DNA of 64,000 bases from an uncultured Planctomycetota bacterium (GTDB taxonomy: Bacteria; Planctomycetota; Planctomycetia; Isosphaerales; Isosphaeraceae), in contig CAWJTV010000041.1 in assembly GCA_963845755.1 (NCBI GenBank), positions 480,001 to 544,000 on the forward strand, in the 5' to 3' direction. Each line of letters begins with the position of its first letter. Positions within the stretch are counted from its first letter, which is position 1. Positions 5,374 through 63,281 of this stretch are shown here, in pieces. The notes below the pieces were generated by a model that made no database searches, was not told the origin of the DNA, and worked only from the letters and a program-made list of their open reading frames with translations. The translations under genes and the position numbers were made by a program.

Positions 5374-5451
5374 TCCCGGAAGCCTCAACGGCCGTCTCGT
5401 AGGGTGCTCTGTGAGCACCGAATTCGGCAAAGTCCCCCGGATCGGTGCTCA
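5374..5451. repeat. First copy of a ~99-bp tandem GTAG REPIN unit, split by the IS (remainder at 6915-6937)
   Basis: Identical to 6936-7013. Joining 5451 to 6915 restores the intact arm CGGTGCTCAGAGAGCACCCTAC. Confidence 0.9.
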
Positions 5452-6914
5452 GGGAACGCCGACGAAATAACATCCCCATTTCAGGGTGCCAAACTGCTGT
5501 TCGCCATGAGAACCTAGGTAAGATAGGAAGATCCAGGCTGTTCCTGGGCGCGCGACCCGTCTGCCTCCCCGCGATGTCGGTTTTCGGAGGGCCCTTCTGG
5601 TCCCGGGGGGGCGTGCGGTGGTATAGCGAGGATTGTTCCGTATCTGGGTCTTTAGCCGGAGGCCAATCATGTCGCCTTATTCCCCGGACGTCGAGCGGAC
5701 CATGAGAGCATTCTACCATTCCTTGCGCGAGAATGATCGGCGACGGTATGCGGCGGTCGAGGCGGCCAAGTTGGGTCACGGCGGGGTCGAGTACATCGCC
5801 AAGGTCTTGGGCGTCGATCCCAAGACCATTCGTCACGGCCAGCGCGACCTCGAGGATCTCCCCGCCGAACCCGCTCCGCAGGTCCGCCAGCCCGGCGGGG
5901 GGCGGAGACGGCGGCTCGATCAAGACCCCGAGATCACCAACAACTTCCACAAGGTCCTCCTCGATCGCACCGCCGGCAGCCCAACCGCGGAGTCCCTGAT
6001 CTGGACCAACTTGACCAAGATCGAAATCGCAGGTGGCATGCGAGAGTGTGGAAGCTTTGTCAGTGTGCATATCGTCAGCCAACTGCTCGATCAGGAAGGT
6101 TTCCATGAACGCAAAGCCCTGCGCATGGAACCGCTGAGCCGCCACCCCGAGCGAGACCACCAATTCCAGACGATCGGCCGGCTCAAGGGGGAATACCTCG
6201 ACTCCCCCCACCCGGTCCTGAGCATGGACCTGAAATCCCGAGAACGGCTCGGCAACTTCTTCCGCGCCGGCACGCTCCAGACGCGACAGACGATCCGGGT
6301 GTTCGACCACGACTTCGACGAGTTCGCCGAGGGACTCGTGTTGCCCCACGGGATCTACGACCTCAAGCAGAATCGCGGATACATCCACCTAGGCACGAGT
6401 CATGATACCAGCGAATTCGCGTGCGACTGCGTCAAGGACTGGTGGGACCGATTCGGCAACGCGGTCTACCCGCAGGCGACGTCGCTGCTGCTGCTCTGCG
6501 ATGGCGGCGGGAGCAACCCGGCGGACAACGACCGCTACCAGCAGCACTTGTTCCGGGCCGACTTGCAACGCCTGGCCAACGACCTGGAGTTGGAGATCCG
6601 GGTGGCGCACTATCCGCCGTACGCCTCGAAGTTCAACCCGATCGAACATCGCCTGTTCCCCCACCTGACGCGGGTCTGCAAGGGCGTCATCCTGCACAAC
6701 ATCGACTGGGTCGCCGAACTGATGAGGAAAGCCACGACGCGGACGGGCCTGACGGTTCAAGTTGACATCCTGGACAAGGTCTATCAACTCGGCCGAAAGG
6801 TCAGCGAAACCGCCAAGGATGCCGTGAAGTTGCTCCGGGACGCCATCCTGCCACGCTGGAACTACCGCATTTTACCCAATGTGTGAAGTCGGGAAGTTAT
6901 TTCGTCGGTGTTCC
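5452..6914 (+). mobile_element. ISAzo13-family insertion sequence
   Basis: 24-bp terminal inverted repeats GGAACGCCGACGAAATAACATCCC (5453-5476) and GGGAAGTTATTTCGTCGGTGTTCC (6891-6914), 22/24 match, flanking a single transposase. Confidence 0.92.
5669..6886 (+). CDS. ISAzo13-family (Rhodopirellula-type) DDE transposase
   Basis: RRRYAAVEA..LGHGG, SMDLK, HDT.EFA.D, LLCDGGGSN, HYPPYASKFNPIEHRLF, WNYRI; GGAGG RBS. Confidence 0.93.
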   Translation: MSPYSPDVERTMRAFYHSLRENDRRRYAAVEAAKLGHGGVEYIAKVLGVDPKTIRHGQRDLEDLPAEPAPQVRQPGGGRRRRLDQDPEITNNFHKVLLDRTAGSPTAESLIWTNLTKIEIAGGMRECGSFVSVHIVSQLLDQEGFHERKALRMEPLSRHPERDHQFQTIGRLKGEYLDSPHPVLSMDLKSRERLGNFFRAGTLQTRQTIRVFDHDFDEFAEGLVLPHGIYDLKQNRGYIHLGTSHDTSEFACDCVKDWWDRFGNAVYPQATSLLLLCDGGGSNPADNDRYQQHLFRADLQRLANDLELEIRVAHYPPYASKFNPIEHRLFPHLTRVCKGVILHNIDWVAELMRKATTRTGLTVQVDILDKVYQLGRKVSETAKDAVKLLRDAILPRWNYRILPNV

Positions 6915-6935
6915 GAGAGCACCCTACAAAGACCT

Positions 6936-7037
6936 TCCCGGAAGCCTCAACGGCCGTCTCGTAGGGTGCTCTGTGAGCACCGAATTCGGCAAAGTCCCCC
7001 GGATCGGTGCTCAGAGAGCACCCTACAAAGACCTTCC
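6936..7037. repeat. Intact GTAG-family REPIN (inverted REP doublet, core 6961-7026)
   Basis: GTAGGGTGCTCTGTGAGCACCG-N22-CGGTGCTCAGAGAGCACCCTAC; each arm is itself a hairpin. Confidence 0.88.
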
Positions 7038-49930: not shown

Positions 49931-50914
49931 TCAGTTTCTTCGCGGCGCCGCGACCTTTGGCGGCTCGACTGTTGGCGCCGGGGGCCTTGGCACCGGACGG
50001 ACCAGGGGAACCGCCGGGATCATTATGCGATTACGAACGGGCCTCAGCACCGCTGGCTGCGCCGCGGGCTCATCGGCCGGGACGAAACCATTCTGCTTGA
50101 GCCACATCCCCATCCCCCGGACCTGATCGAGCTGCTGCTTCAAAGAGCGGTACTGCCCCTCCTCGAAGATGGGTTTGACCTTCGCCTCGGGCAGCGTACC
50201 GATCAGGTAGAGGATGGCGTAGTAGTCGTTCTGACCGAGTCTCCTGGGCGGCCGAGTCTCGTCGATCAGCACCTTGACGAGCCGCTCCCGCTGCGCGTCG
50301 GTGAATCCCACGTTGTTGTTCAGCATCTCCATCGTCAGGTCCACCCGCGCCTGGTATCGGTACAACAAGCGCTCGTGCACGACCTTCTCATGCTCGACGG
50401 CCTGCTCGGGGCTCAAGGTCGATTTGAGCGATTTCGCGAAGATCGACCCCTCCTCGAAGATCGCCTGGAAGGCGGTCTGGAGCACCTGGATATCCTGCCA
50501 CATCAACCCCAACTGGTTCTGGTCGTTCTTGACCGATTGGAATTTCTTCCGGATCTCCTCGACGCGATCGAAGTAGCGCTTGATGTCACCGCGTCCGGCC
50601 AGCAGGAGCTTCTTCCGCTGAAGGGGCGTCAGGCCGCACGTCCGCCCCAGGTCCTCCACGCTCAGTGTCAGGAGGGCATCGAGCTTGTTGCGGGCCACAC
50701 CGACGTTGGCCGTGCCGAGGTTGCCGAATAACCATTGATCGAACTGCGCTTCATTGAACTGGACGCCGCCTCGCAACTGTACAGCCTCCTTCTGCACCGC
50801 CTCGTCCTCTGCTGGGTCGTCCTGTGCCTGCGCGGCTTGACCGGCGCCCACCATCGCGACGATCGCCGCGGCTGCCAGCAGCCGGATCAGGGGGCGAGAC
50901 CAACAACCGATCAT
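49931..50914 (-). CDS. Secreted helical LTxxQ-like protein, paralog 1
   Basis: Signal peptide (AQAQ); GLTPLQRKKLLLAGRGDIKR, SIFAKSLKSTLSPEQ, DETRP, LPEAKVKPIF. Confidence 0.8.
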   Translation of the reverse strand: MIGCWSRPLIRLLAAAAIVAMVGAGQAAQAQDDPAEDEAVQKEAVQLRGGVQFNEAQFDQWLFGNLGTANVGVARNKLDALLTLSVEDLGRTCGLTPLQRKKLLLAGRGDIKRYFDRVEEIRKKFQSVKNDQNQLGLMWQDIQVLQTAFQAIFEEGSIFAKSLKSTLSPEQAVEHEKVVHERLLYRYQARVDLTMEMLNNNVGFTDAQRERLVKVLIDETRPPRRLGQNDYYAILYLIGTLPEAKVKPIFEEGQYRSLKQQLDQVRGMGMWLKQNGFVPADEPAAQPAVLRPVRNRIMIPAVPLVRPVPRPPAPTVEPPKVAAPRRN

Positions 50915-50979
50915 CGGGATTCCCCTCATTGTGCAAGCCATCCGCTCGACGACTCTGCGCGGACCTTTACTTCTTTCGC

Positions 50980-52006
50980 TCAGCCCGCTTCTCGATCACC
51001 CTCGTCTTCAACATCTCCACCCCCGCCGGGGCCATTTTCATCATCGGGCGCATTCTGAGTGTCTTTCGCATCGGCGGCCAGCCGGGCCTCGCGCAGGTCT
51101 TCGTCCTCCAGCGGGTCGTTGTTCATCATGATGCCGCCCATGATGCCGAACCCGCCGAAGAACCCCTGGTATTTCGGGATGGTCTTCCAGATCTTCACCT
51201 GGGACTCGTTCAAGAACGGGGCGACGAGACGATCGGAGATCGGAGGCAAGTAGTTATTATCGTTCATGAACATCTCGATCGACTGGTCCCAGGAGTCGTC
51301 CCAGTGGGCGCCCAGGGATTCGCTGATCTTGTCGCGCTGGTCGGGGCTGAGGATCATGTCGTGATCGAGACGGGCGACGAGGTTGCGGAGAGCGACCCGC
51401 TTTCGGGTGGCGATCCGCTTGGTGAGCTCGGCCTGGTATCGGGCGGCCTGCTCGGCGGGGAGCCGCGACTTGAGCGCCTCGAGCAGTCCTGTCTCGATCA
51501 ACCGACGCGGGTCGTTGGCCTGCGCGCTGGGTCATGGTCATGGGTCGGTTCATGGCCTCGACGTATTTCTTGGTCGCGTCGCGGAGGGTTTGCTCGGCGG
51601 CCTGGGCGATCGTCTTGCGCTGCTCGGGCGTGAGCTGGCAGGCCGCCCGGATCACATGGAATTCCGCCCGGATGATCGGCCGGAACTGCATCATCATCTG
51701 ATTGGCCTGCCCGCCCTGATTCACCACGAAAGCCATGGGCGCCGCGACTTTCGCCGCCACCGCAACGTCCCGGATCACCGTAAGCCGCCTCTTGGCCGCG
51801 GCGTCCGCGCCTTTGGGCCGCGGCGCGGATTTGTAAACCTTCACCTTCGGCGGCTTGCCCTCCGGCGTCCTGGCGGCCTGCGCCGGCGGTGGAATCGTCT
51901 TCGTGACTGCGGCCTCCTGGAGTTCGGCCAGGGCCAGCGCGGAGGACACGATCGCGACCGCGATGATCATGGACACCAGGGCTGGGAAGCGCCTCTTCAT
52001 CATCAT
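50980..52006 (-). CDS. Secreted helical LTxxQ-like protein, paralog 2 (most divergent); frameshift near 51520
   Basis: Signal peptide; CQLTPEQRKTI..AA, LKSRLPAEQAARY, LSPDQRDKI, PFLNESQ..IW. Confidence 0.68.
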
Positions 52007-52113
52007 ACTCGTGCCGCCGGTCAACAGGGCTTGAATCCATCGCGTCCGAGGATCGCCGGCGGGAACCGGCTCCTCATTACAGAGTACGAAGTCGAGCGGC
52101 CTCCGGCCATACT

Positions 52114-53021
52114 TCACCCGGGGAGAGCTCCGCGCCGATCCTGTTCGGGAAGGCCGTGGGCCGCGGCGCCGGCCGGCCGGCCCTCGTCCTCGGGCAGGTA
52201 GCCGCCCGCGATGATCTCCTGCTCGAGTCGCTTGACTTCTTCGAATCCGGCAAGCAGCCGGCGCCACTGGCGGTCGTCGAAGATCGGCTTGAGGGTCGTC
52301 TCCGGCAGTCGGGAGGCCTGGATCAACACCGCTTGAAAATCGTATCCCCCGTACCGTCTGAGGGGTGCGTTTGCTCAACGATCTGAATCACGAACTGCCG
52401 GCTCTGATCGTCGCTCAGCTTCAAGGTTCCGAGCCCGCCCACGACCGCCCATTCCACGCGGGATCGATAGAACTCCAACTGGTCCTTCTCGTACGTCTTG
52501 CGTTGCTCGGAGCGGAAGGTTGACTTGAGGGTCTTGACGAAGATCGATCCTTCGATGAAGAGCTTCTCGGGAAGGCCCTTCGTCTGATCTCGCACCTCTC
52601 TCATCGCCGTGAGGAGTCTTGCGGCATTGCCCGGCTCTCGGGCTCGCTGGAAGTCCTCCTCGAGGCGACGCAGGGTTACTTCTTTTTCTCGGATGCGCTC
52701 GAACAGCCGCTTGATGTCGCCGCGACCCGCAATCTCCAGCTTTTTCTTCTGCTCGGCAGTGAGCCCATAGACCTGATCAAGCCGGTTGATCTGCCAGGCG
52801 AGGCGTTTTTCGAGGCGTTCGCGGCTGACCTCGGTATCCGCGACGTCATCGGCCTCGACCGATTCGGCCACCAGGTCGTTCGCCCCGAATGCTCGCTCGA
52901 TGGCCCGCTGTGACTTTCTCGCGGGTTGGTCCGGATCTTGCTCCTGCGCGGCTGAGGCGGAATCGATGCCCGGGGGGAGCATCGTTGCGGCCCACATCAG
53001 AATTGAAAATCGTTGCCACAT
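52114..53021 (-). CDS. Secreted helical LTxxQ-like protein, paralog 3; frameshift near 52350
   Basis: YGLTAEQKKKLEIAGRGDIKR, SIFVKTLKST, FYRSRVEW; QASRLPETTLKPIFDDRQW in ORF 52114..52329. Confidence 0.78.
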
Positions 53022-53070
53022 ACGACTGACCCTCTGGAAGACGGCGCGCCGTGCCGCCTTGCGGGCTCGA

Positions 53071-53972
53071 TCAATCCCGTCTCGCTTGACTCGTTCCGCC
53101 GAGCTCGCCTGGTCGATGTCGGTCGGCCGCCGCGTTCGGTTTCGAATCGTCCGGCAATACCGCGGCTGGTCGGGCTTTCGGTTGACCCGGGGGGAGGTAG
53201 CCTTGCTGGGCGAGGAACTTCTCCTGCCGCCGCGCAAATCGAATTCCTGGCGGAGCAAGCCCCATTGGGCGTCGTCGAAGATCGTCTTGAGCCGGCCCTC
53301 GGGCAGCCGGGTCGCCTGGAACAGTAGGGCGAGTAAGTCGTACTTGCCGTATTTCTCCAGGGGACGCGTCTCTTCGACGATCGCGTCCACGAATCGTCGG
53401 CGCTGCTCGTCGCTCAATTGTAATCCGTGATGAATCTGGGGGACCATCCATTCGACGCGCGACCGATAGAAGGCCAACTGCTCCCGCTCGTGGCAGGCGC
53501 GTTGCTCGGTGGTCAAGGTCGACTTGAGGGTCTTGGCGAACAGCGATTCCCCGCCAAAGAGATCTAGTTGGACCTGATTGGGGAGGGGTCGAAGCTCTCT
53601 GGGGATGCGGATGAGGACTCCCTTGGAGCGATGGAGTATCGCCTTGGCCTGTTCCGCACGATCGAACAGCCGCTTGATGTCGCCCCGTCCGGCCACAGAC
53701 AGCTTCTTCTTCTGGTCCGGAGAGAGGCGGTACATCTGGTCGATCCGGCCGATTTCCCCGGCGAGGTCGGATTCGATCCGATTGCGAGCTGCGCCAGGGC
53801 CCCCGGGGCCGTAGATCCGTTGATCGAACGGGTCGTCCGTCATGGCCTCGTCCGGCTGCGCGGGTTGTTCCACTTTCGGCTCGGCCTCATCCTGGGCCCG
53901 GGCGGGCCGGTCCGTGCCGAGGAGTCCCAGCATCATCGGGACCAGGAACAGGAGCCTGTCTCGTCGCCACAT
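53071..53972 (-). CDS. Secreted helical LTxxQ-like protein, paralog 4; frameshift near 53235
   Basis: YRLSPDQKKKLSVAGRGDIKR, SLFAKTLKSTLTTEQ, EETRPLEKYG, QATRLPE..LKTIFDDAQW; GGGAGG RBS. Confidence 0.8.
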
Positions 53973-54042
53973 GGAGCCAACCTCCCTTGCTGTGCGTTCC
54001 GGGCGAGCCGTCGGGTCGGCTCCCCGCGCATGGGCCTGCTCC

Positions 54043-54981
54043 TCATCGGCGTGTTGACTCAATACGGACCGGTAAGGCCCGTCGGATCGGCGCCGGGCGA
54101 GCGATTTGATCGCCCACCGTCTTCCGTTTCGCGCCATCCCCCGCGCCGGGCTGATTCCCGTCCGCGCCGGCTCCGGCGAGGTAGCCGTTGGCGATGAGGA
54201 CCTTCTCGTAGGTTCGGGCTTCCAGGAACCGGTCATGGAGCAGGCGCATCTGGCCTGGGTTCAGGATCCGCGCGACCTTGGCCTCGGGCAGCCGCGACAC
54301 CTGGAACATCACCGCGTACGTATCATATTCCCCGTAGTATTTGAGCGGAGGGGTTTCCTCCACGATCAGGGTCACGAACCGGCGATGCTGCAGGCCGCTC
54401 AACCCGAGCCGCTCATCGTAGACAGAGACGACCGATTCGACTCGGGATCGATAGATCTCCTTCGCGCCCTTGCTGACTGGTTCGTTCGCCAAGGTCGTCT
54501 TCAATGTCTTGCCCAGCAGCGATCTGCCGTCGAACGGGTCCTCGTTCATCATCTTCACCTGCCAGGATCGCAAATCCCGGTACAAGGCAAGGAACTGGTC
54601 TCGGTTGTCCAGGACACGCTTCATCGCCGCTTTCTTCTCCTCGGTGAAATCGAGCAACCGCTGGATGTCACGCTTTCCCGCGAGTTCCAGCTTCTTCTTC
54701 TGCGCGGCATTGAGCCCATGCCTCTGGACGAGCTCGTGGATCCTGGTGGAGAGGGTTTCCTGGTATCGTCTTCGGGTCTGCTCGAGACCCCCCGTTCGTT
54801 TGTAAATCATCTGGTCGAACCACTGCTCGAACTGTTCGTCGGAAACGAACAAGGCGTTGCGCGGCTTTGCCGGCTGTTCCTCGTCCGCATCGGCGTCGCC
54901 CTGGGCCCGGGCAGGAGGTCCGTAGCCGGCGAATCCCAGCATCATCGTGGCCAGGAGTAGGACTCCGAATCGTCGCTTCAT
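54043..54981 (-). CDS. Secreted helical LTxxQ-like protein, paralog 5
   Basis: Signal peptide (ARAQ); GLNAAQKKKLELAGKRDIQR, SLLGKTLKTTL, EETPPLKYYG, QVSRLPEA. Confidence 0.82.
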   Translation of the reverse strand: MKRRFGVLLLATMMLGFAGYGPPARAQGDADADEEQPAKPRNALFVSDEQFEQWFDQMIYKRTGGLEQTRRRYQETLSTRIHELVQRHGLNAAQKKKLELAGKRDIQRLLDFTEEKKAAMKRVLDNRDQFLALYRDLRSWQVKMMNEDPFDGRSLLGKTLKTTLANEPVSKGAKEIYRSRVESVVSVYDERLGLSGLQHRRFVTLIVEETPPLKYYGEYDTYAVMFQVSRLPEAKVARILNPGQMRLLHDRFLEARTYEKVLIANGYLAGAGADGNQPGAGDGAKRKTVGDQIARPAPIRRALPVRIESTRR

Positions 54982-55110
54982 GACACTGCCCTCATGCGAC
55001 CGTCGGTCACGAGCCCGCGGGCCCGGAGAGGAGCGAAAGACACCCTCCTCGGAGTGGAGAGCGACGATTCACCAGGGAACGTGAGTTCCGTCTCGGCCAC
55101 CCGGGGAAGA

Positions 55111-55953
55111 TCAATTCCGCACGCGCGAGGTATAGCCGCGCTCGACCAGGACGTTTTCCATCCGCCTGGCCCGTTCGAATCGCTCGCTGAGCCGGCGCCA
55201 TTGGGCGTCGTCGAAGATCGGCTTGAGCTGGGCCTCGGGCAACCGGGAGGCTTGCAACAAGATCGCGTCCTCGTCGAGTTCGCCGTATTTTTCGAGGGGA
55301 CGGGTTTCCTTGGCGATCACGTCCAGGAGACGCCGATGTTGCTCCCGGCTCAATCGGAGCTCGCGGCTCAGGGGAAAGAGCACCCAGTTCACGCGTGTCC
55401 GATACGTGGCGACACGGTCCCTTTCCTCGTATCGGGCGCGTTGCTCGGGGGTTAATATCCTCTTGAGCGTCTTGGCGAAGAGCGAGTCGTCCTCGAAGTG
55501 GTTTCGAAGGTACTCCTGACGAAGCGCTAGCAGAACGCGGCGATTCACGTTGACGACGACGTGGTCTTCCTCGGGGTGATCGAACCGTTTCTTCATCTCG
55601 AAGCACCGATCAAGGAACCGCTTGATCTCGCCGCGCCCGGCCAGTTCGAGTTTCTTCTCTTGCTCGGCAGTGAGATCGTACATCTGGTCGACCTGATCGA
55701 TCACCCGGATGAGCCGCGATTCGAGATGATCCCGGATCGCTTCGGTATCCATATCCAAGCTCGCGCGGTCCACCGGATCGACGACCCGCCGAACTTCGAG
55801 CAGCACCGGTCCAGGCGGCCGCGGTTGTACCCCTGCCCCGGGTGGAGCGAAGGCCTCGGCAGGGTTGGCCTGCGCGCGGGCGGGCTGGGCCATTCCGACG
55901 ACCCCCAGCACGAACGCCGTACCGGCGAGTACACGAGAGGAGATTCGCCCCAT
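55111..55953 (-). CDS. Secreted helical LTxxQ-like protein, paralog 6
   Basis: Signal peptide (ARAQ); YDLTAEQEKKLELAGRGEIKR, SLFAKTLKRILTPEQ, QASRLPEAQLKPIFDDAQW; GGGAGG RBS. Confidence 0.82.
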   Translation of the reverse strand: MGRISSRVLAGTAFVLGVVGMAQPARAQANPAEAFAPPGAGVQPRPPGPVLLEVRRVVDPVDRASLDMDTEAIRDHLESRLIRVIDQVDQMYDLTAEQEKKLELAGRGEIKRFLDRCFEMKKRFDHPEEDHVVVNVNRRVLLALRQEYLRNHFEDDSLFAKTLKRILTPEQRARYEERDRVATYRTRVNWVLFPLSRELRLSREQHRRLLDVIAKETRPLEKYGELDEDAILLQASRLPEAQLKPIFDDAQWRRLSERFERARRMENVLVERGYTSRVRN

Positions 55954-56099: not shown

Positions 56100-59000
56100 T
56101 TATTGACCACCGGCGCCCTTTTCGAGCCGGTTGAAATACTCATCCAGGCCGGCGCGGAATTCTTCGGGCAAGGACGGGCCCGACTCGCCGGTGGCCTGGG
56201 TGACTCCGCGGTCCTCGCGGACCTCCTTCTCGTTGACGCCGCCGCCCACGAGCGCGAGGGCCGAGTCGTGGGTCGTGCCGGTGCCGCCGCCGCCGGGGTT
56301 CGCACCGCCGCCGCCGCCACCCTTGGGATTGATCCGCTTGGACTGGAGGAGCAGCTCGATGGCTTCGGTCTCGGCACCGATGGCAGGGCTGCCGGTCTCC
56401 GGCCGGGCCAGGATCTCGGACGCCTCGCCCATGACCTCGGCGACCAGCGTGAGCAAGCCGATCTCCTTGGGGAACTCCTGCTCGCCGTCGGGCAATTCGC
56501 GGATCTTCTGCGTGACTTTCTCGGTGCGATCCTTGATGCCGTTCTGCGACTCCGAGAGCTTGCCTGCCTGGCGCTTGTGCTCCTCGGCCTTGACCGCGGG
56601 GCGGGCCTGCTCGGCGACGCGGGTCTCCTCGCGGAGGTTGACTTCCGCCTCGAGGATCTGGAGGACTTCCAGCACGATCGAGGGGGGCAGGCTGGCCTTC
56701 GACTTGCCGCCGGGGCATTGCCCGCTGCACGCCGGGTTGACCAGGTCTTCGGCCCAGCGGTCCAGAGTGTCGGACCAGAATTCGCACTGGGCGATCGACA
56801 CTCCATGCTCCTTCTTGATGTCGTCGCCGAGTTGCCGGAGGCCGCCGATGACGTCCTCTTTCCGCATCTCGTCCAACACGGTCCTGAAGCGGATGAACTG
56901 CCGGCGCTCGAAGTAGGACTGCATGTCGTCCATGATCAGCGAGACGTCGTGGCTCCCCTTGCCTTCCAGGTCGGCCATCTCGCCCAGGACTTTCCACGCC
57001 GGTGCGCCGACGGTCTGTCCCGCGGCACCGAAGGTTTCCCCGATCTGGTCGGAGATCCGGCCACCGATCTTGTACTGGACCCGAGAAGCCGCCTTCAATC
57101 GCTTGACCAGCGTGCTCCCCTCCAGGTTGGCCAGGACGCGGTTGAGCTCGTCGGCGACCTTCTCGAACTCCGCCAGCAGGTCGCGCTGCTGCTTGAGGGC
57201 CTGATCCAGTTTCTCCTCCTCGGGATTGTCCGGTGGCGGAGGGCCCTTGGGATCCTGGGGCTTACCCATGAGAGTCGTCACGGGCAGCCGCTGGGGCGGC
57301 GAGCCCCCCTTGCTCTTGCCGGGCTTCCCTTCGAGTGGCTTGTCGGGAGGCGAGTTCTGGGACGATTCCATGTCGACCACGCGGGGGATGACGGGCTGGT
57401 CCGTCTTCGCCTTCGGATCGCCTTCCTTGGGCTGCCCGGTCCCGGAGGCTCGGATCTGGCCAGCCATCTTCGTGGGGCTGGCCGGCGGAGGGGTCGCCGC
57501 GATCTTCGTCGGCGCCTGGGCGGCCTGCTTGAGCAGGTCGGAGACCGAAGGCATCCGGTTGCCGGCGATGTCCTTGAGGATCTGGAGCATCTCGGCCCAC
57601 TTCTCCAGGTGGCCGACGCCGAACTCGGGGTTCCGCATCGCCTGGCGGACCAGGTCGTCGCCCGAGACGACCAGGCCCGAAAGCCGGCGCCCGTTCTGGC
57701 GCTCGGCCGATGACTGGTTCTCGATGCGACGGCGGGTCTCGGGCCGGTCCAGCTCCTCGGAGTTCATGGCACGCAGTTGCTTGTTAGTCTCGTGGAGCTG
57801 AAGCTCCCGATCGCGGACGTCGATCGCCTGGCGATGCCAGCGGCTGAGTTGCTCGGTCAGCCAGATGGCGTGCTGCTCGGGGGTGAGCACGAAGAAGGTG
57901 TAGGGTGCCGAATACACCCGCTCGCGGCCGGGGAGATAATCCTCGACGAACATCCGGACCTGCACCGGCTGGGGCTCGATGCCCAGCGACTTGGCCGAGA
58001 ACGTGCCGCCGACCTGCATCGACTCCTTCTCGTGGTCGCCCGCCGCCAGGATCCGCTCGCCCTTGGCCGGCTTCGAAACGGCCGGATCGTCCACGCCCTC
58101 CCAGACCATGCCGACGCGCCGGATGCCGAAATCGTCCTGGGCCCGGATCGTGAAGCCGAGCTGCTCCGAGTCGAGCACGACTTTCTGCCGCGGCAGCTCT
58201 TCGCAGGTGAGGCTCGGGGCCTCGTCCTCGCGGCCGTTGATGGCCAGGCTGAACGGTTCCTTCCCTTCCAGCCCGTAGGTGTCCCGCCAGCGGAACTCCA
58301 TCTTGCGCGGGCCTTTGACCGTCGTCGCCGGGCTGGTGATCGTCGCGCCGGCGGGATTCCGGGACTGGCCGTCGACCTGGGCGGACTTCAGCTCGCGGGT
58401 CGCCGTGGCGGCGAACGTGGCCTGGCTTCCCTCGACCAGCGAGATCGCCCCGCCGCGCACGTCCTTCTGGAGGTCGCCGGGGCGACCGAGATACGCCGGG
58501 AGGCTCACGCCCGCGACGATCGACGACAGCTCGGGCCGCAGTGTCGGCTCGACGTACACCTTCTGCCAGGCGTCGCCGATCCGGACCATCAGCCAGCCGG
58601 GATCGATCTGCGAGGGGAGCTCGAACTCATAGCGGCCGTCGCGGAGCGTGGCGGCCACCGCGGGCTGGCCGTCGAACTGGGCCTCCCCCTTGCTGGGCTG
58701 CCAGACGGTATCCTCGGCCAGCCGCGCCGTGACCGTGAACGGTTCGCCGTGCGCGACGACCATCCGGTCGCTCAAGGGCTCGAGCGCCGCGAACGTATAG
58801 CGGGGCGTACTGCCCCAGGGCGACAGCAGCCGCGCCCAGGCGCTGCGAGCCGCCGCCGGGAACGCCAGGGCCAGCGCCAGCGTCAGGACGACGGGCACGG
58901 CCGCGATCCCCATCCACAGCCGATGGCGCGGGGCCGGCACCGCATCGGAGAAGTCCCGCCGCTGCGCGTCCTGGGCCACTTCCCGGACCGCCGCCTCGCA

Positions 59001-59387
59001 CAACGCCAGCGATCGCGATTGCTCGAAATCGTTCCGGACCAGTTCGATGATCCCCAGCAACTGGTCGCCGACCTGCGGATGCTTCCGGCTCAAGAGCCGC
59101 GCGAGCTGCTCCAGCTTGCGGTTCCGCCAGATCCACCGGTGCACGGCCATCGGCACCTTCGCGAAGCCGACCACGGCTGCGACGAACAACACGGCACGCA
59201 ACCAGACCGGCGTGTCCCACGCGCGATCCAGCAGGAACATCAGCAGGTAGGCGGCCACGATCGCGAAGACCGCCACGCAGGCGGCCTCCACCATCTTGAT
59301 GACCCATACCCGGCGGCGGAACTCGTGCAACTGCTTCTGCAGCGCCTCGGGCAGTTGCAGCCGTTCATGCGTATACGCGAGGCTCAT
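56100..59387 (-). CDS. Large membrane-anchored coiled-coil protein (DUF4175-like) of BatA/vWA operons
   Basis: Three N-terminal TM helices, beta-rich middle with AQDDFGI, long coiled coil, C-terminal LPEEFR..LDEYF..L. Confidence 0.8.
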   Translation of the reverse strand: MSLAYTHERLQLPEALQKQLHEFRRRVWVIKMVEAACVAVFAIVAAYLLMFLLDRAWDTPVWLRAVLFVAAVVGFAKVPMAVHRWIWRNRKLEQLARLLSRKHPQVGDQLLGIIELVRNDFEQSRSLALCEAAVREVAQDAQRRDFSDAVPAPRHRLWMGIAAVPVVLTLALALAFPAAARSAWARLLSPWGSTPRYTFAALEPLSDRMVVAHGEPFTVTARLAEDTVWQPSKGEAQFDGQPAVAATLRDGRYEFELPSQIDPGWLMVRIGDAWQKVYVEPTLRPELSSIVAGVSLPAYLGRPGDLQKDVRGGAISLVEGSQATFAATATRELKSAQVDGQSRNPAGATITSPATTVKGPRKMEFRWRDTYGLEGKEPFSLAINGREDEAPSLTCEELPRQKVVLDSEQLGFTIRAQDDFGIRRVGMVWEGVDDPAVSKPAKGERILAAGDHEKESMQVGGTFSAKSLGIEPQPVQVRMFVEDYLPGRERVYSAPYTFFVLTPEQHAIWLTEQLSRWHRQAIDVRDRELQLHETNKQLRAMNSEELDRPETRRRIENQSSAERQNGRRLSGLVVSGDDLVRQAMRNPEFGVGHLEKWAEMLQILKDIAGNRMPSVSDLLKQAAQAPTKIAATPPPASPTKMAGQIRASGTGQPKEGDPKAKTDQPVIPRVVDMESSQNSPPDKPLEGKPGKSKGGSPPQRLPVTTLMGKPQDPKGPPPPDNPEEEKLDQALKQQRDLLAEFEKVADELNRVLANLEGSTLVKRLKAASRVQYKIGGRISDQIGETFGAAGQTVGAPAWKVLGEMADLEGKGSHDVSLIMDDMQSYFERRQFIRFRTVLDEMRKEDVIGGLRQLGDDIKKEHGVSIAQCEFWSDTLDRWAEDLVNPACSGQCPGGKSKASLPPSIVLEVLQILEAEVNLREETRVAEQARPAVKAEEHKRQAGKLSESQNGIKDRTEKVTQKIRELPDGEQEFPKEIGLLTLVAEVMGEASEILARPETGSPAIGAETEAIELLLQSKRINPKGGGGGGANPGGGGTGTTHDSALALVGGGVNEKEVREDRGVTQATGESGPSLPEEFRAGLDEYFNRLEKGAGGQ

Positions 59388-59415
59388 GGATACCTCACAG
59401 TCCACTGGGTCACAC

Positions 59416-59474
59416 GTAGGTCAGGCTTTCCAGCCTGACAACCATCGAGCGTCAGGCTGGAAGGCCTGATCTAC
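59416..59474. repeat. GTAG-family REPIN, third subtype
   Basis: GTAGGTCAGGCTTTCCAGCCTGAC ... GTCAGGCTGGAAGGCCTGATCTAC. Confidence 0.85.
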
Positions 59475-59487
59475 CTTGGAACGTCAA

Positions 59488-59580
59488 CGACGCCTGTCCG
59501 AATCCCCCTACTATACAAGACCGATCACCTTCCGGCCTACCCAGAAGACTCTCAAGGGGTCCGAATAGGCCTGCTCCGAG
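59488..59580 (-). repeat. Orphan copy of the 3' end of the vWA/GATase gene (direct repeat of 61008-61099)
   Basis: 59488-59546 vs 61008-61066 match at 54/59 (offset 1520 bp); reads LGAGLFG..LRVFWVGRKVIGLV* vs the gene's LGAALIGLLGVFWVGRKVIGLV*. Confidence 0.9.
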
Positions 59581-59610
59581 TCTCGCTGGTCTCTTCGATT
59601 TGGGAGCGGT

Positions 59611-59985
59611 TCATTTGGATACTGACGCCAAGTTATTGTTCTGCATGTGAGCAGGACGGTACCCGGGGAGGGCGGAACCCAAACTCTTCATTTCTGGGTA
59701 TGCTTCCAGAGCCTCCCAGGCCCGAGCTTCAAACTCCTCCTTGGACGACCAAGCAGGCATGAAGGGAGGAAATGGTGGTTCGCTAAGCCAGGCGATGTAA
59801 TCAGGAAGAGTACGTTGAGCGGCGAGTTGGAATGGTTGCATGGTGGTCGGGAAGATGTCGTTGTCCCGGAGCCATCGCGTAGCGGGACCCATCTCCCGAT
59901 CGCCATCGGAAGCACGATAGACATCGTAGCAGTAATAACGGACGAAGTTTAATTCGTTCTCGGTGAGAGTGAACGAGGTTGACAC
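59611..59985 (-). CDS. Hypothetical protein, second gene of the cassette
   Basis: GTG start with GAGGAGG RBS directly after the upstream stop; lower GC. Confidence 0.68.
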   Translation of the reverse strand: MSTSFTLTENELNFVRYYCYDVYRASDGDREMGPATRWLRDNDIFPTTMQPFQLAAQRTLPDYIAWLSEPPFPPFMPAWSSKEEFEARAWEALEAYPEMKSLGSALPGYRPAHMQNNNLASVSK

Positions 59986-60001
59986 TCGTGCCTCCTCTTC
60001 G

Positions 60002-60340
60002 TCAAACGTTGATTTGGGGCCAATACCCTGATCGGAACATTCTTGCCCGGTCCTGATCCCTCGGATCGGTGAGGAAAGACGCCAAGTCTGGGTAGCCTTG
60101 AGATGCGTTTGTGGCCCATCGTTCGGCCCCAGCAACAGGGCGTATGACGGGGATGGTCTCCTCAGGAGCCTTGACGACATTTCTCTTAATCCAAAACACC
60201 GGACGCCGACATTCATGATTTGGACAATCCATCGCCAACCGACCAGCCCCGATCTCTCCTTTTAATGGCTCAAGATACCATTCGATGAACCAATCCTCGA
60301 ATTTTACGTTGCACCAGGGACATGTTTCTCCGTGTGGCAT
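60002..60340 (-). CDS. Hypothetical Cys-rich (putative Zn-binding) protein, first gene of the cassette
   Basis: CPWC ... CPNHEC; lower GC; coupled to the downstream gene. Confidence 0.65.
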   Translation of the reverse strand: MPHGETCPWCNVKFEDWFIEWYLEPLKGEIGAGRLAMDCPNHECRRPVFWIKRNVVKAPEETIPVIRPVAGAERWATNASQGYPDLASFLTDPRDQDRARMFRSGYWPQINV

Positions 60341-60407
60341 CGCAACCCGGATGTATCTATGGGTCAAACGCGGTCGGCCAACTTTCTCGAGCCCCTCGAT
60401 TTCCGTG

Positions 60408-60455
60408 GTCCAAACCCTTCTACTCTTACGAGACCGAAGACCTTTCCAGACCAAA
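60408..60455 (-). repeat. Degenerate third copy of the same gene 3' end
   Basis: Minus strand CTTTGGTCTGGAAAGGTCTTCGGTCTCGTAAGAGTAGAAGGGTTTGGAC (LWSG-KVFGLV) aligns with TTCTGGGTAGGCCGGAAGGTCATCGGTCTTGTATAGTGGAGGGGCTCGGAC. Confidence 0.6.
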
Positions 60456-60482
60456 GGCGGGCCGGATCCGTCACAGCCAAGG

Positions 60483-60701
60483 TCACGCGTAGAGTAAGCG
60501 ACCTCGCGGCTTGGGGATCGGCCGGCCCAATTCCTTGGCCGTCTCGATCCACTCGCTGATGATGAGCTCCACCGCGTCGAGAGCCCCCCGGTAAGAGGCA
60601 CCATCGGCGGCACATCCGGGCAACTCAGGGACTTCGGCGAGGAATGCCTGATCTGCTTCGCTCCAGTAAATAATGATCTCGTAACGTGGGTTATCGGGCA
60701 T
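60483..60701 (-). CDS. hicB: HicB family antitoxin (short form)
   Basis: YEIIIYWSEADQAFLAEVPELPGCAADG.SY..AL..WIETAKELGRPIPKP. Confidence 0.92.
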   Translation of the reverse strand: MPDNPRYEIIIYWSEADQAFLAEVPELPGCAADGASYRGALDAVELIISEWIETAKELGRPIPKPRGRLLYA

Positions 60702-60938
60702 CTGACTCCTCCGCCAATCGATACCGGATGATCACGTCCCGGACCTGTCTGACCTGATACGCCTTGGCCAGAGAGTCTCGCGGCTGAAGGTTCAGGATCT
60801 CCTCAACGCCGTCGCGCGTGAAGATGTGGTGGTCGCCTCGAATGCGCACCTCAAAGCCAAGACGCTCCAACAACTGACACAGGTCGCCGAATCGGATGTT
60901 CCACGGAGAACTCGGGCGAGCGTTTTCGACCAACTCAT
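60691..60938 (-). pseudogene. hicA: HicA family toxin, frameshifted near 60890-60903
   Basis: MSWSKTLARVLRGTSD in one frame; NIRFGDLCQLLERLGFEVRIRGDHHIF..NLQP..AKAYQVRQVR in another. Confidence 0.85.
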
Positions 60939-61030
60939 CGCGGCCGAACCTCCAAGATGAGTCACCCGAGTTCTGCTCGTCAGTCTGGAAAACCCGACCG
61001 ACTTCGCCGACGCCTGTCCGAGCCCCTCCA

Positions 61031-63281
61031 CTATACAAGACCGATGACCTTCCGGCCTACCCAGAACACGCCCAGGAGTCCGATCAGCGCCGCCCCGAGC
61101 GCGGGATGGGCCCAGAGCGGGATCCGGCGCACCGAGGGTGGCGGGTCGGGCAGCTCGGAGAGCGACTGCACGACCTGGTCGATCTTGCTGGGATCGATGA
61201 CCTTGCCGCCGGTGACCCGGGCGAGTTCTTCGAGCACCTCCGGGCGGGCGGGCCGACCCGGCCGCTCGGCCGCCACGCCCTGGACGAAGAACGTGGTTTC
61301 CAGCGTCGCGGCGGTCTGCTTGCAGAAGAGCGTCACCTTGTGACTGCCCCCCTCTTCGGCGAGGAATCGGCCGGTGAACTCGCCCCACTCGTCGCCGGTC
61401 GTCGTGAGATGGACCAGCTCGGCCTTGCCCGACGGGGCCGCGATCCGCGCCGTGACGTCACCTTGATGGAGCGGCTCGCCGCTCCGATCCATGACGTTGG
61501 CGTGCAGGGCCAGGATCTGGTTCCGCTTCGGCTGATCGGGAACGTAGTAGAACCGCATCGTCTCGCCCTTGGCCATGTTCCGCTGATAGGCCATCCAGCG
61601 CACGACCTGGCCCCAGAACCGGTAGTGGTACTTGTCCTCGACCCCTTTCCGCCAACGCCAGGCGCCGTCGGTCCCCATGAAGAGCACCTTGCCGGCGCCG
61701 AAGGTCCGCGTGACCAGGAGCGGCATCCGACCGTAGTCGTTGGAGACATCCTTATGGACGCAGAGCACCTCGCTGCCCGCCTTAGCGCGGAGCACCGGCG
61801 CATACCACTGGAAGCCCGGCAGACCTTCCCAGACCTGGGCGTTATCGTCCTCGGTGTCGGCAAGCTTGGTGAGCAAGCTGCGCCGGCCCGTCTCGGTCAA
61901 TTCGAAGTGATTGGGCGTGCGCGAGCCCCAACCGCTGGGCTGGGACGTATCCATCACGACCGGGCAGAGATCCTCCAGCTCCGTTTCCAGCAGCGTGAAC
62001 TCACGCCCATGCATGCCCGGCATGAACACCAGCCCGCTGGCCTGGTGCTCGACGATCCCCTTGATCAGCCGGCACTGCTCGACCGTCAACTGGCCGTCGT
62101 CGACCCCGACATCGCCGAGGAAGACCACATCGAACTTCGAAAGCTCATCCAGGCCGGCGGGGAACTGTTTGATGTAATCCTTGTTGCCGCCGCCGGGTTT
62201 GCTGAGGCCCGGGTGGAACAGCAGGCAGGAGAGCTCGACGCCGGGGTCGCGCGACAGAGCATTCCGCAAGTATCGGTATTCCCACCGCGGGTACGACTCG
62301 ACGAGCAGGACGCGGAGCTTCTCCTCGCGGATGGCGATCGGTGCCGAGAGCGTGTTGTTCTCGGTGGAGATCTCGTCGCCATGCTTGGGGATCGAGAGCG
62401 TCAGGGTGAAATCGCCGATGGCCTTGGGCCGCCAGACGAGCCAGTCGCTGGTCCGGCTCATCGGGGCGATCCGCACGTCGCGAGAGACCGAATCGCCGTC
62501 GGAGGTCTTGAGTGTGACGGTGGTGAGGTATTCGCGCGGCAGCGAGCTGTCGATCGTGAACGGGATCCGGACGGACTTGCCCGTCACGCCGAACGTCGGC
62601 AGGTCGAGGCTCAGCAGCTCGACGTCGGGCAACCGGGTGCGGCTCCCCGCCGGCACGGCGAGGATCGGCACGCCCTTGACCCGGAGCCGGGCGGCGGCTT
62701 GCACCGGGGGCTGGCCCTCGTTCCAGTCGCCATCCGAGGCCAGGACGATCCCGCGCAGGTTGGAGATTCGCTCCTGCGCGGGCCAGCGGGTCGTAAAGGT
62801 CGGTACCTTGACCGGTCCGACTCGCCGTGGAGGCACTCGGATCCGAGGTCGATCCGGGATTGATGGAAGGTGCCGAAAACGGCTGGATGATGACGTTCAT
62901 CCGCGCCCGGATCCGATCCCAGGCCGCGGGGTCGACCAGGGGCGCGACGGCCTCGCGGCGCGTCGTCGCCGTGGGACTCGGCTGGTCGGCCTGGACGACG
63001 TCGCGCGTCTCCATGCTCGGCGATGCGTCCCAGAGGACGGCGATCGTCGGCTTCTCTTGCGGGCGGAATTCTTCGATCCACTCCGGCTGGTTGAGCATCA
63101 CCGCGACGGTCGCGACCAGGGCCAGCCGCAACAGCTCGAGCAGTCCCATCGAGAACCGATAGCCGCTGCGGCGCCAGGCGACGAAGCTGTATCCGGCCGT
63201 GAGCAGCACGGCCATCAGCGAGAGGGCCAACGTCCATGGTGTCCAGAGGAATGTAAGCGATCGAGTCACGCTTGTCGTCAT
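61031..63281 (-). CDS. Membrane protein with vWA and class-I GATase-like domains; frameshift near 62775
   Basis: Two N-terminal TMs, LWDASPSM (MIDAS DxSxS), VLASDG..N, PRWEYRYLRNAL.RD, DVVFLGDV, WRWR, FWGQVVRW, C-terminal TM. Confidence 0.85.

Follow-up and report, generated by a model that had tools for sequence, protein, structure and literature searches.

How do small gene modules come to be stacked inside an operon at which no enzyme for their integration is found? The question is raised by a stretch of 64,000 nucleotides (nt), here called the window, from an uncultured soil planctomycete of the family Isosphaeraceae (assembly GCA_963845755.1, contig CAWJTV010000041.1, positions 480,001 to 544,000). 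On the minus strand of this window, gene A and gene B of one operon are separated by an insert of about 1.5 kb that holds the toxin-antitoxin pair hicAB and a second gene pair, which we call X1-X2, with copies of the gene A end lying behind each pair; the insert contains neither an integrase nor a transposase. A preliminary description of this DNA had proposed that circles carrying the gene tail and its cargo integrate one after another, in an integron-like accretion that regenerates the host gene. We consider it probable that the two cassettes were added successively behind copies of the gene A end by homologous recombination of the host, through RecA single crossover and with no dedicated enzyme.

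Apparent alleles of one intergenic site

The live end of gene A (61008-61066) and the distal copy (59488-59546) lie 1,520 nt apart and are identical at 54 of 59 positions; the full match is 93 nt long (82.8%) and has one extra base in its weaker 5' part, and the only genome matches of this 93-nt repeat are its two copies. The middle copy (60408-60444) is more degenerate. With the live tail as query, none of 1,000 dinucleotide shuffles reached the score of its 37-nt alignment, and two of 1,000 did so with the distal copy as query. It aligns better to the tails (score 39) than to the spacer and leader of a relative (33); it therefore derives from the gene A junction, whichever of the two was its source. 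The same junction is represented by two further pieces: at 60978-61002, following the live end, a remnant of a repetitive extragenic palindromic (REP) sequence, and at 60464-60498, where hicB ends, a copy of the flank that lies upstream of gene B. Because tail copies, REP remnant and flank copy all come from this junction, the stretch reads like a row of three alleles of a single intergenic site (Table 1).

The insert has a GC (guanine plus cytosine) content of 0.56 vs 0.67-0.68 in the flanking genes. Pfam matches confirm the identity of hicA and hicB (PF07927, PF15919), and hicA is broken as assembled: its ATG at 60938 and the HicA domain lie in different frames. No match resembling a promoter or a terminator was found. 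The flanking of two gene pairs by gene-tail copies, the hicA-hicB assignment and the REP doublet forming a hairpin (REPIN) at 59416-59474, which is one of about 92 loci of its family, had all been reported in the preliminary description, and they stand.

Contigs of the sequencing runs labelled X1 and X2 (run labels), which may stem from the assembly's own study, span the junctions at 60956-61173, 60318-60490, 59496-59646 and 59371-59521 with zero to one difference and argue against a mis-join. The probability that an assembly artefact made the duplication is accordingly negligible: several genes of the assembly carry frameshifts, which would agree with it, whereas the copies are 8-17% divergent, equivalent copies occur in separate genomes, and no reads contradicting the junctions were seen.

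Alternative alleles and order of arrival

The relatives compared are Planctomycetota, many of them Isosphaeraceae, and represent other species rather than strains. In a first set of 13 loci from other genomes, nine have a short gap between genes A and B, three hold cargo and one is not syntenic. A second set comprises 160 further loci, some of them redundant, of which 146 hold both genes. Here the gap is above 400 nt in 15 loci and 201-400 nt in 13, while the remaining 118 of 146, with at most 200 nt, represent empty sites. G001, a genome of the same genus, carries a different cargo of 1.8 kb at this site, closed by a short tail copy. Between events at the site, the length of the repeat varies (about 9, 37, 42 and 69 coding nt). 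Cargo matches to Pfam in the relatives include zeta toxin, ParE-like, PIN, Uma2, DUF2887, PDDEXK_3 and Y1_Tnp; the alternative cargo is small and often toxin-antitoxin-like. The locus L076 (6600-7509) is filled by a Y1_Tnp gene, resembling REP-associated tyrosine transposases (RAYT), between inverted REPs.

The order of the cassettes emerges from modules that shift position between genomes. The leader of X1 lies behind the live tail in L034 and behind the middle copy here. A unit of gene tail and DUF5678 lies behind the live gene in G001 and behind a dead copy in L034 (397 nt, 75%). A third case involves a DAO-family gene, which we take to be sarcosine oxidase beta-like: in G001 the live gene is followed by a PIN pair and then by a 456-nt copy, and in the source genome by an insert of 3.45 kb that holds a 2OG-Fe(II) oxygenase gene, by a dead copy of 381 nt and then by the PIN pair, which the two genomes have in common over 1,604 nt at 96.4%. 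Since modules that stand first in one genome follow a dead tail copy in another, the simplest reading of these sequences is that new cargo likely comes in immediately after the live gene and pushes the old end, together with its cargo, further back. The successive stacking and the regeneration of the host gene that had been proposed are both supported. In the source genome, the end of a sigma-factor-like gene and the sequence downstream of it recur three times further downstream with different genes between them (G000:C11:220543-227042); this is a longer stack.

Table 1. Elements of the locus in the order of minus-strand reading, with gene B last
Feature	Position	Strand	Remark
Gene A, anchor gene	61031..62836	-	weak GATase1-like match; N-terminal part in another frame as assembled
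Live gene A 3' end + 23-nt spacer	61008..61099	-	repeat template
Degenerate left REP of REPIN family, behind live end	60978..61002	-	19/25 to 59450-59474
hicA	60691..60938	-	PF07927 E 2e-6; frameshifted as assembled
hicB antitoxin	60483..60701	-	PF15919 E 5e-6; 78% DNA identity to module behind L036 gene A
Copy of gene B upstream flank (59388-59424)	60464..60498	-	overlaps hicB end; 0/300 shuffles
Middle degenerate copy of gene A end/spacer	60408..60444	-	0/1,000 shuffles
X1-X2 cassette leader	60341..60407	-	homologous to leader behind L034 live tail (141 nt, 64%, includes X1 start)
X1, 112 aa	60002..60340	-	conserved Cys pairs (predicted zinc-binding); undescribed family
X2, 124 aa	59611..59985	-	predicted all-helical partner of X1; undescribed family
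Distal dead copy of gene A end + spacer	59488..59580	-	likely former resident end
GTAG-type REPIN	59416..59474	.	family of ~92 loci
Gene B	56100..59387	-	operon resumes; adjoins gene A in most relatives

Gene A itself is split over two frames (61031-63281), with an open frame of 621 aa vs 740-790 in most close relatives; this reflects either a sequencing error or a real frameshift.

Gene-tail copies across the genome

We surveyed 3,153 local direct repeats of the source genome, 501 of which are unique to their site. Filtering was needed, as the raw counts of tail copies equalled those of mid-gene and head controls because of tandem paralogs. Other gene-tail duplications, which the preliminary description had anticipated, do exist in the source genome: tail copies lie downstream of 24 genes vs upstream of two, and 15 vs two (p=0.002) under a geometry control that demands an offset larger than the gene length. 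Across sites the copies measure about 25 to 456 nt. For one DUF1501 gene the copy measures 224 nt in the source genome; in G001 it measures 424 nt and comes with PemK cargo.

Twelve queries from sites of the source genome were compared with G001. One site is clearly empty there (C11:570611), another has a much shorter gap, and a further one shows the PIN cassette described above; two genes have their own tail copies of other length, one more tail copy accompanies MazF-like cargo, and Uma2 cargo is shared at one site, whose gene is presumably carB. Three orthologs have no downstream copy. Four queries yielded no usable ortholog or synteny: there was no match in G001 for the C13 and C24 sites and no ortholog for C11:220001, and dapF is not syntenic downstream.

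The changes within dead copies also bear on their history. In a test polarised by an outgroup, to which alignment edges add noise, 106 of 256 changes specific to 14 dead copies are synonymous vs 29-33% expected (p 2e-5 to 2e-3). One dead copy has 13 of 16 synonymous specific changes and therefore was once a working allele. An unpolarised version (0.39 vs 0.29) was set aside, as by our own arithmetic the drift of live copies alone predicts about 0.43. The earlier view that synonymous changes mark a once-functional allele thus stands for the pooled copies and for this other locus; at the focal locus, where the dead copy has four synonymous and four non-synonymous specific changes, the argument is weak and does not decide the matter.

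These data allow us to weigh a local origin, in which the gene end and its spacer were first duplicated in tandem and unrelated events later placed cargo between the copies. As such an origin would predict, genome-specific states are often common to live and dead copies (143 shared sites), and the unpolarised value of 0.39 in tails fits drift of the live copy combined with decay of the dead one. It leaves unexplained, however, both the tail-cassette unit that is first in one genome and second in another and the dead copy with its excess of synonymous changes, and we give it little credence.

A transposase-driven origin seems about as improbable, if anything slightly more so. Here a RAYT would cut at the REPIN and copy or join the flanking DNA and cargo. 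The REP remnant behind the live end, and the position of hicAB between that remnant and the copy of the post-REPIN flank, are in line with this, as are ten Y1_Tnp matches in the source genome, the Y1_Tnp gene that occupies the A-B site in L076, and tandem REPIN clusters with flanks, described in the part of the literature source considered here (PMC3116915). Yet abundant repeats follow none of the 24 live ends and two of the 24 dead copies vs 572 of 4,567 gene ends, a count made by exact 16-mers that would miss decayed REPs, and REPINs of several types also occur at empty alleles.

The absence of a nearby integrase, transposase, attC site or tRNA gene had been noted before, and the searches agree. 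The window has no transfer RNA or transfer-messenger RNA (tRNA/tmRNA) gene, and an island anchored in such a gene was rejected. No attC core pattern was found in the locus with a regular expression, which finds three sites on contig C18. The nearest tyrosine recombinase lies some 520 kb off and is the only PF00589 match on contig C41. If there were a dedicated integron-like system, its recombinase working in trans on the gene tail as attachment site, it would account for the newest-first order, and the source genome does have 43 tyrosine-recombinase matches as well as the attC-like array on C18. In contrast, many unrelated genes are targets, the end-points vary, and copy lengths differ at the same gene in sister species, which excludes a fixed attachment site. 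As 24 genes show the pattern with variable copy lengths, head copies occur as well, and 12 of 15 filled alleles of the A-B site lack a clear copy, the gene A tail is not a special or dedicated attachment site either. The variable end-points have already largely refuted such a system, which we regard as very improbable; from the integron-like accretion of the preliminary description, the stacking order remains and the dedicated site does not. The array on C18 (G000:C18:76900-82100) consists of small genes separated by attC-like repeats, and no PF00589 match lies on that contig.

A proposed route of entry

In the reading that we favour, incoming DNA of a relative would carry the gene A end followed by cargo and would most likely circularise, either through ligation or through excision between two copies already in place. 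This non-replicating circle would integrate through a RecA single crossover in the gene end, keeping gene A whole, setting the new cargo directly behind it and stranding the previous end and its followers downstream. Repetition would yield a newest-first stack with hicAB at the front, X1-X2 behind it, and the resident end and REPIN last. The downstream position of the tail copies would be explained if selection keeps the flanking genes intact. In line with this route, the source genome has recA, comEC and dprA (the last in two pieces). We favour the crossover of a circle because of a case in Escherichia coli that gave 3'-end duplications: in the part of that study considered here, the 3'-end homology was duplicated in 56 of 60 clones (109-950 bp in the 14 sequenced), which is put down to re-circularised DNA entering by single crossover (PMC3240628).

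Alternatively, linear DNA anchored in gene A might rejoin the recipient gene end on its other side, without any circle, the second joint being made by homology-facilitated illegitimate recombination (HFIR) or through a tail copy that the DNA already carried. Truncated or chimeric cargo ends are consistent with this, namely the fragments of hicA and X1 in L036 and, in L034, a piece of DUF5678 joined to an X2-like end. In two cases, the 5' parts of live and dead copies are nearly identical and the differences lie in the last 28-100 nt, which fits linear entry, although by sequence either route can give such a pattern. The presence of comEC and dprA also fits linear entry. Linear entry has been proposed for the stacking of modules of the type VI secretion system (T6SS) in Vibrio cholerae, according to the part of the source drawn on (PMC5361080). 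In the E. coli case, however, true HFIR accounted for 4 of 60 clones and is expected to delete, and the duplications came from circles, as far as the excerpt covers (PMC3240628). We hold linear entry, the main rival, to be rather unlikely.

Several points weigh against circle integration as the source of the stack. No circle was seen. In the run labelled X4, one contig connects the X1 leader with a tail of the distal type (joint 60374-59487), and this could be either a circle junction or the chromosome of a relative in which X1 stands first. By sequence alone, a circle's single crossover looks the same as a linear double crossover that has an existing tail copy as its second arm. The repeat is strong over about 60 nt, a short length for RecA. 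Among the 15 filled alleles, two have a clear tail copy (L034, L047) and one a copy of the gene B head (L091), these being the three longest inserts; the other 12 comprise one with a weak score, which its near-twin lacks, and 11 with none, so cargo also enters without duplication. Hence the empty sites and different cassettes that had been expected in relatives are found, and a tail copy beside each cassette is not. Across the genome, head copies show no polarity after the geometry control (11 vs 5 before it, 3 vs 5 after), copies of internal gene fragments number 30 and 22 (52 in total), part of the 24 tail-copy sites were inspected individually, and gene calls come from our own simple caller on an assembly with frameshifts. 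The even split of synonymous and non-synonymous changes at the focal locus belongs here as well. Lastly, identity between the source genome and G001 dips at the gene A 3' end (0.86 vs about 0.92), barely under other comparison windows at 0.87, which leaves the mosaic test only suggestive.

The choice between circular and linear entry can be tested on defined junctions in this lineage, thanks to its many parallel cases, to the different alleles of sister genomes and to direct evidence on arrival order. We tentatively speculate that the stranded gene ends could serve as built-in recombination arms, and that tail plus cargo could form a self-targeting, enzyme-free cassette able to enter any allele of its gene again, ahead of the existing stack. 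If this were true, dozens of integron-like arrays would exist in planctomycete core operons, fed from a shared pool of toxin-antitoxin modules that includes the undescribed X1-X2.

The X1-X2 pair

For X1 there are seven close homologs and 96 representatives of clusters, in which Cys pairs are conserved, and X2 has 32 matches including itself. Within the family, 20 of 121 genomes hold X1, with up to seven matches each. At 21 of 30 X1 loci a match to the X2 profile lies directly downstream, so that the two small genes are tightly linked in conserved order. Long flanking repeats occur within 1.5 kb at 3 of 29 other X1 loci, one involving a gene tail, one a gene head and one unassigned. No Pfam or PADLOC match was obtained for the pair, apart from weak zinc-finger models in a few members, and in the ESM Atlas X2 falls into unnamed clusters only and X1 mostly so, with low recognition scores. 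The structure models of X1 and X2 are confident, with a predicted local distance difference test (pLDDT) score of 96 and 90, and a fold search with them gave no clear match; the best ones have Z 2.6 with a root-mean-square deviation (rmsd) of 2.5 over 46 residues (LysW) and Z 3.9 with an rmsd of 3.2 over 59 residues. The pair forms an undescribed, tightly linked family made of a predicted zinc-finger protein and a predicted helical partner. Their size, linkage and company suggest a role as toxin and antitoxin, which makes X1-X2 a candidate for a new toxin-antitoxin or defence family.

Further observations in the window and genome

Positions 49931-55935 of the window, downstream of gene B, hold a family of tandem paralogs that are predicted to be secreted; the A-B cargo of L047 is a distant member of it (33% over 63 aa). 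At 5374-7017, a transposase gene (5669-6886), presumably ISAzo13-like, stands between two copies of a REPIN and flank of 82 nt that are 99% identical. Elsewhere in the genome, a run of small modules without long flanking repeats (G000:C30:88143-90487) contains what we take to be XisH/XisI-like, hicAB and DUF4058-like modules. The 18-mer counts of G000 are topped by a CRISPR-repeat-like repeat (CRISPR, short palindromic repeats that are clustered and regularly interspaced) of about 175 copies and by a repeat with a 7-nt period of about 200 copies.

Comparison with known systems

Newest-first stacking of small genes, often toxin-antitoxin pairs, is typical of integron cassette arrays. Our locus stacks in this order; it differs in having no integrase, attI or attC and in its variable end-points, and it is not an integron. 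In the literature searched, we found no report of stacked toxin-antitoxin cargo behind duplicated gene tails in planctomycetes, nor of integrase-independent cassette arrays with 3' duplication. Tandem REPIN clusters likewise repeat a REPIN with its flank, as far as the relevant part of their description goes (PMC3116915); unlike them, the locus has genes between its units, and REPs are not enriched at the other sites.

Judged by sequence, the footprint corresponds to the published insertion with long target duplication, except for the class of cargo. The portion of that work available to us defines it by an insert below 20 kb and a direct repeat above 30 bp that is unique to its site, includes restriction and modification genes in the cargo searched for, and leaves the cause open (PMC2853133). 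The locus agrees in the size of its insert and in the length and uniqueness of its repeat, and shares the single copy at the empty site, the absence of a mobility gene, the lower GC and the variable repeat length; some published repeats also overlap gene 3' ends. In contrast, its cargo is hicAB and an unnamed pair and holds no restriction and modification genes, and several stacked events with their order are seen here, in Planctomycetota.

The E. coli crossover of re-circularised DNA resembles our case in the variable-length duplication of a gene 3' end around an insert; in the part consulted, it was recA-dependent and used a laboratory plasmid with 1 kb of homology (PMC3240628), whereas the repeats here are shorter and diverged. 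Related recombination is also covered, in the parts at hand, by PMC2884548 and PMC2568036. Effector-immunity displacement in the V. cholerae T6SS is similarly integrase-free and newest first, with older parts shifted downstream, and its authors draw the parallel to integrons; in the portion drawn on, the effector is replaced and orphan immunity genes stay (PMC5361080), whereas here the end of an unrelated operon gene is duplicated. New in the present case are the order of the cassettes by comparison and the undescribed X1-X2 pair. The locus also illustrates how small genes of the addiction type can build up in core operons that stay intact.

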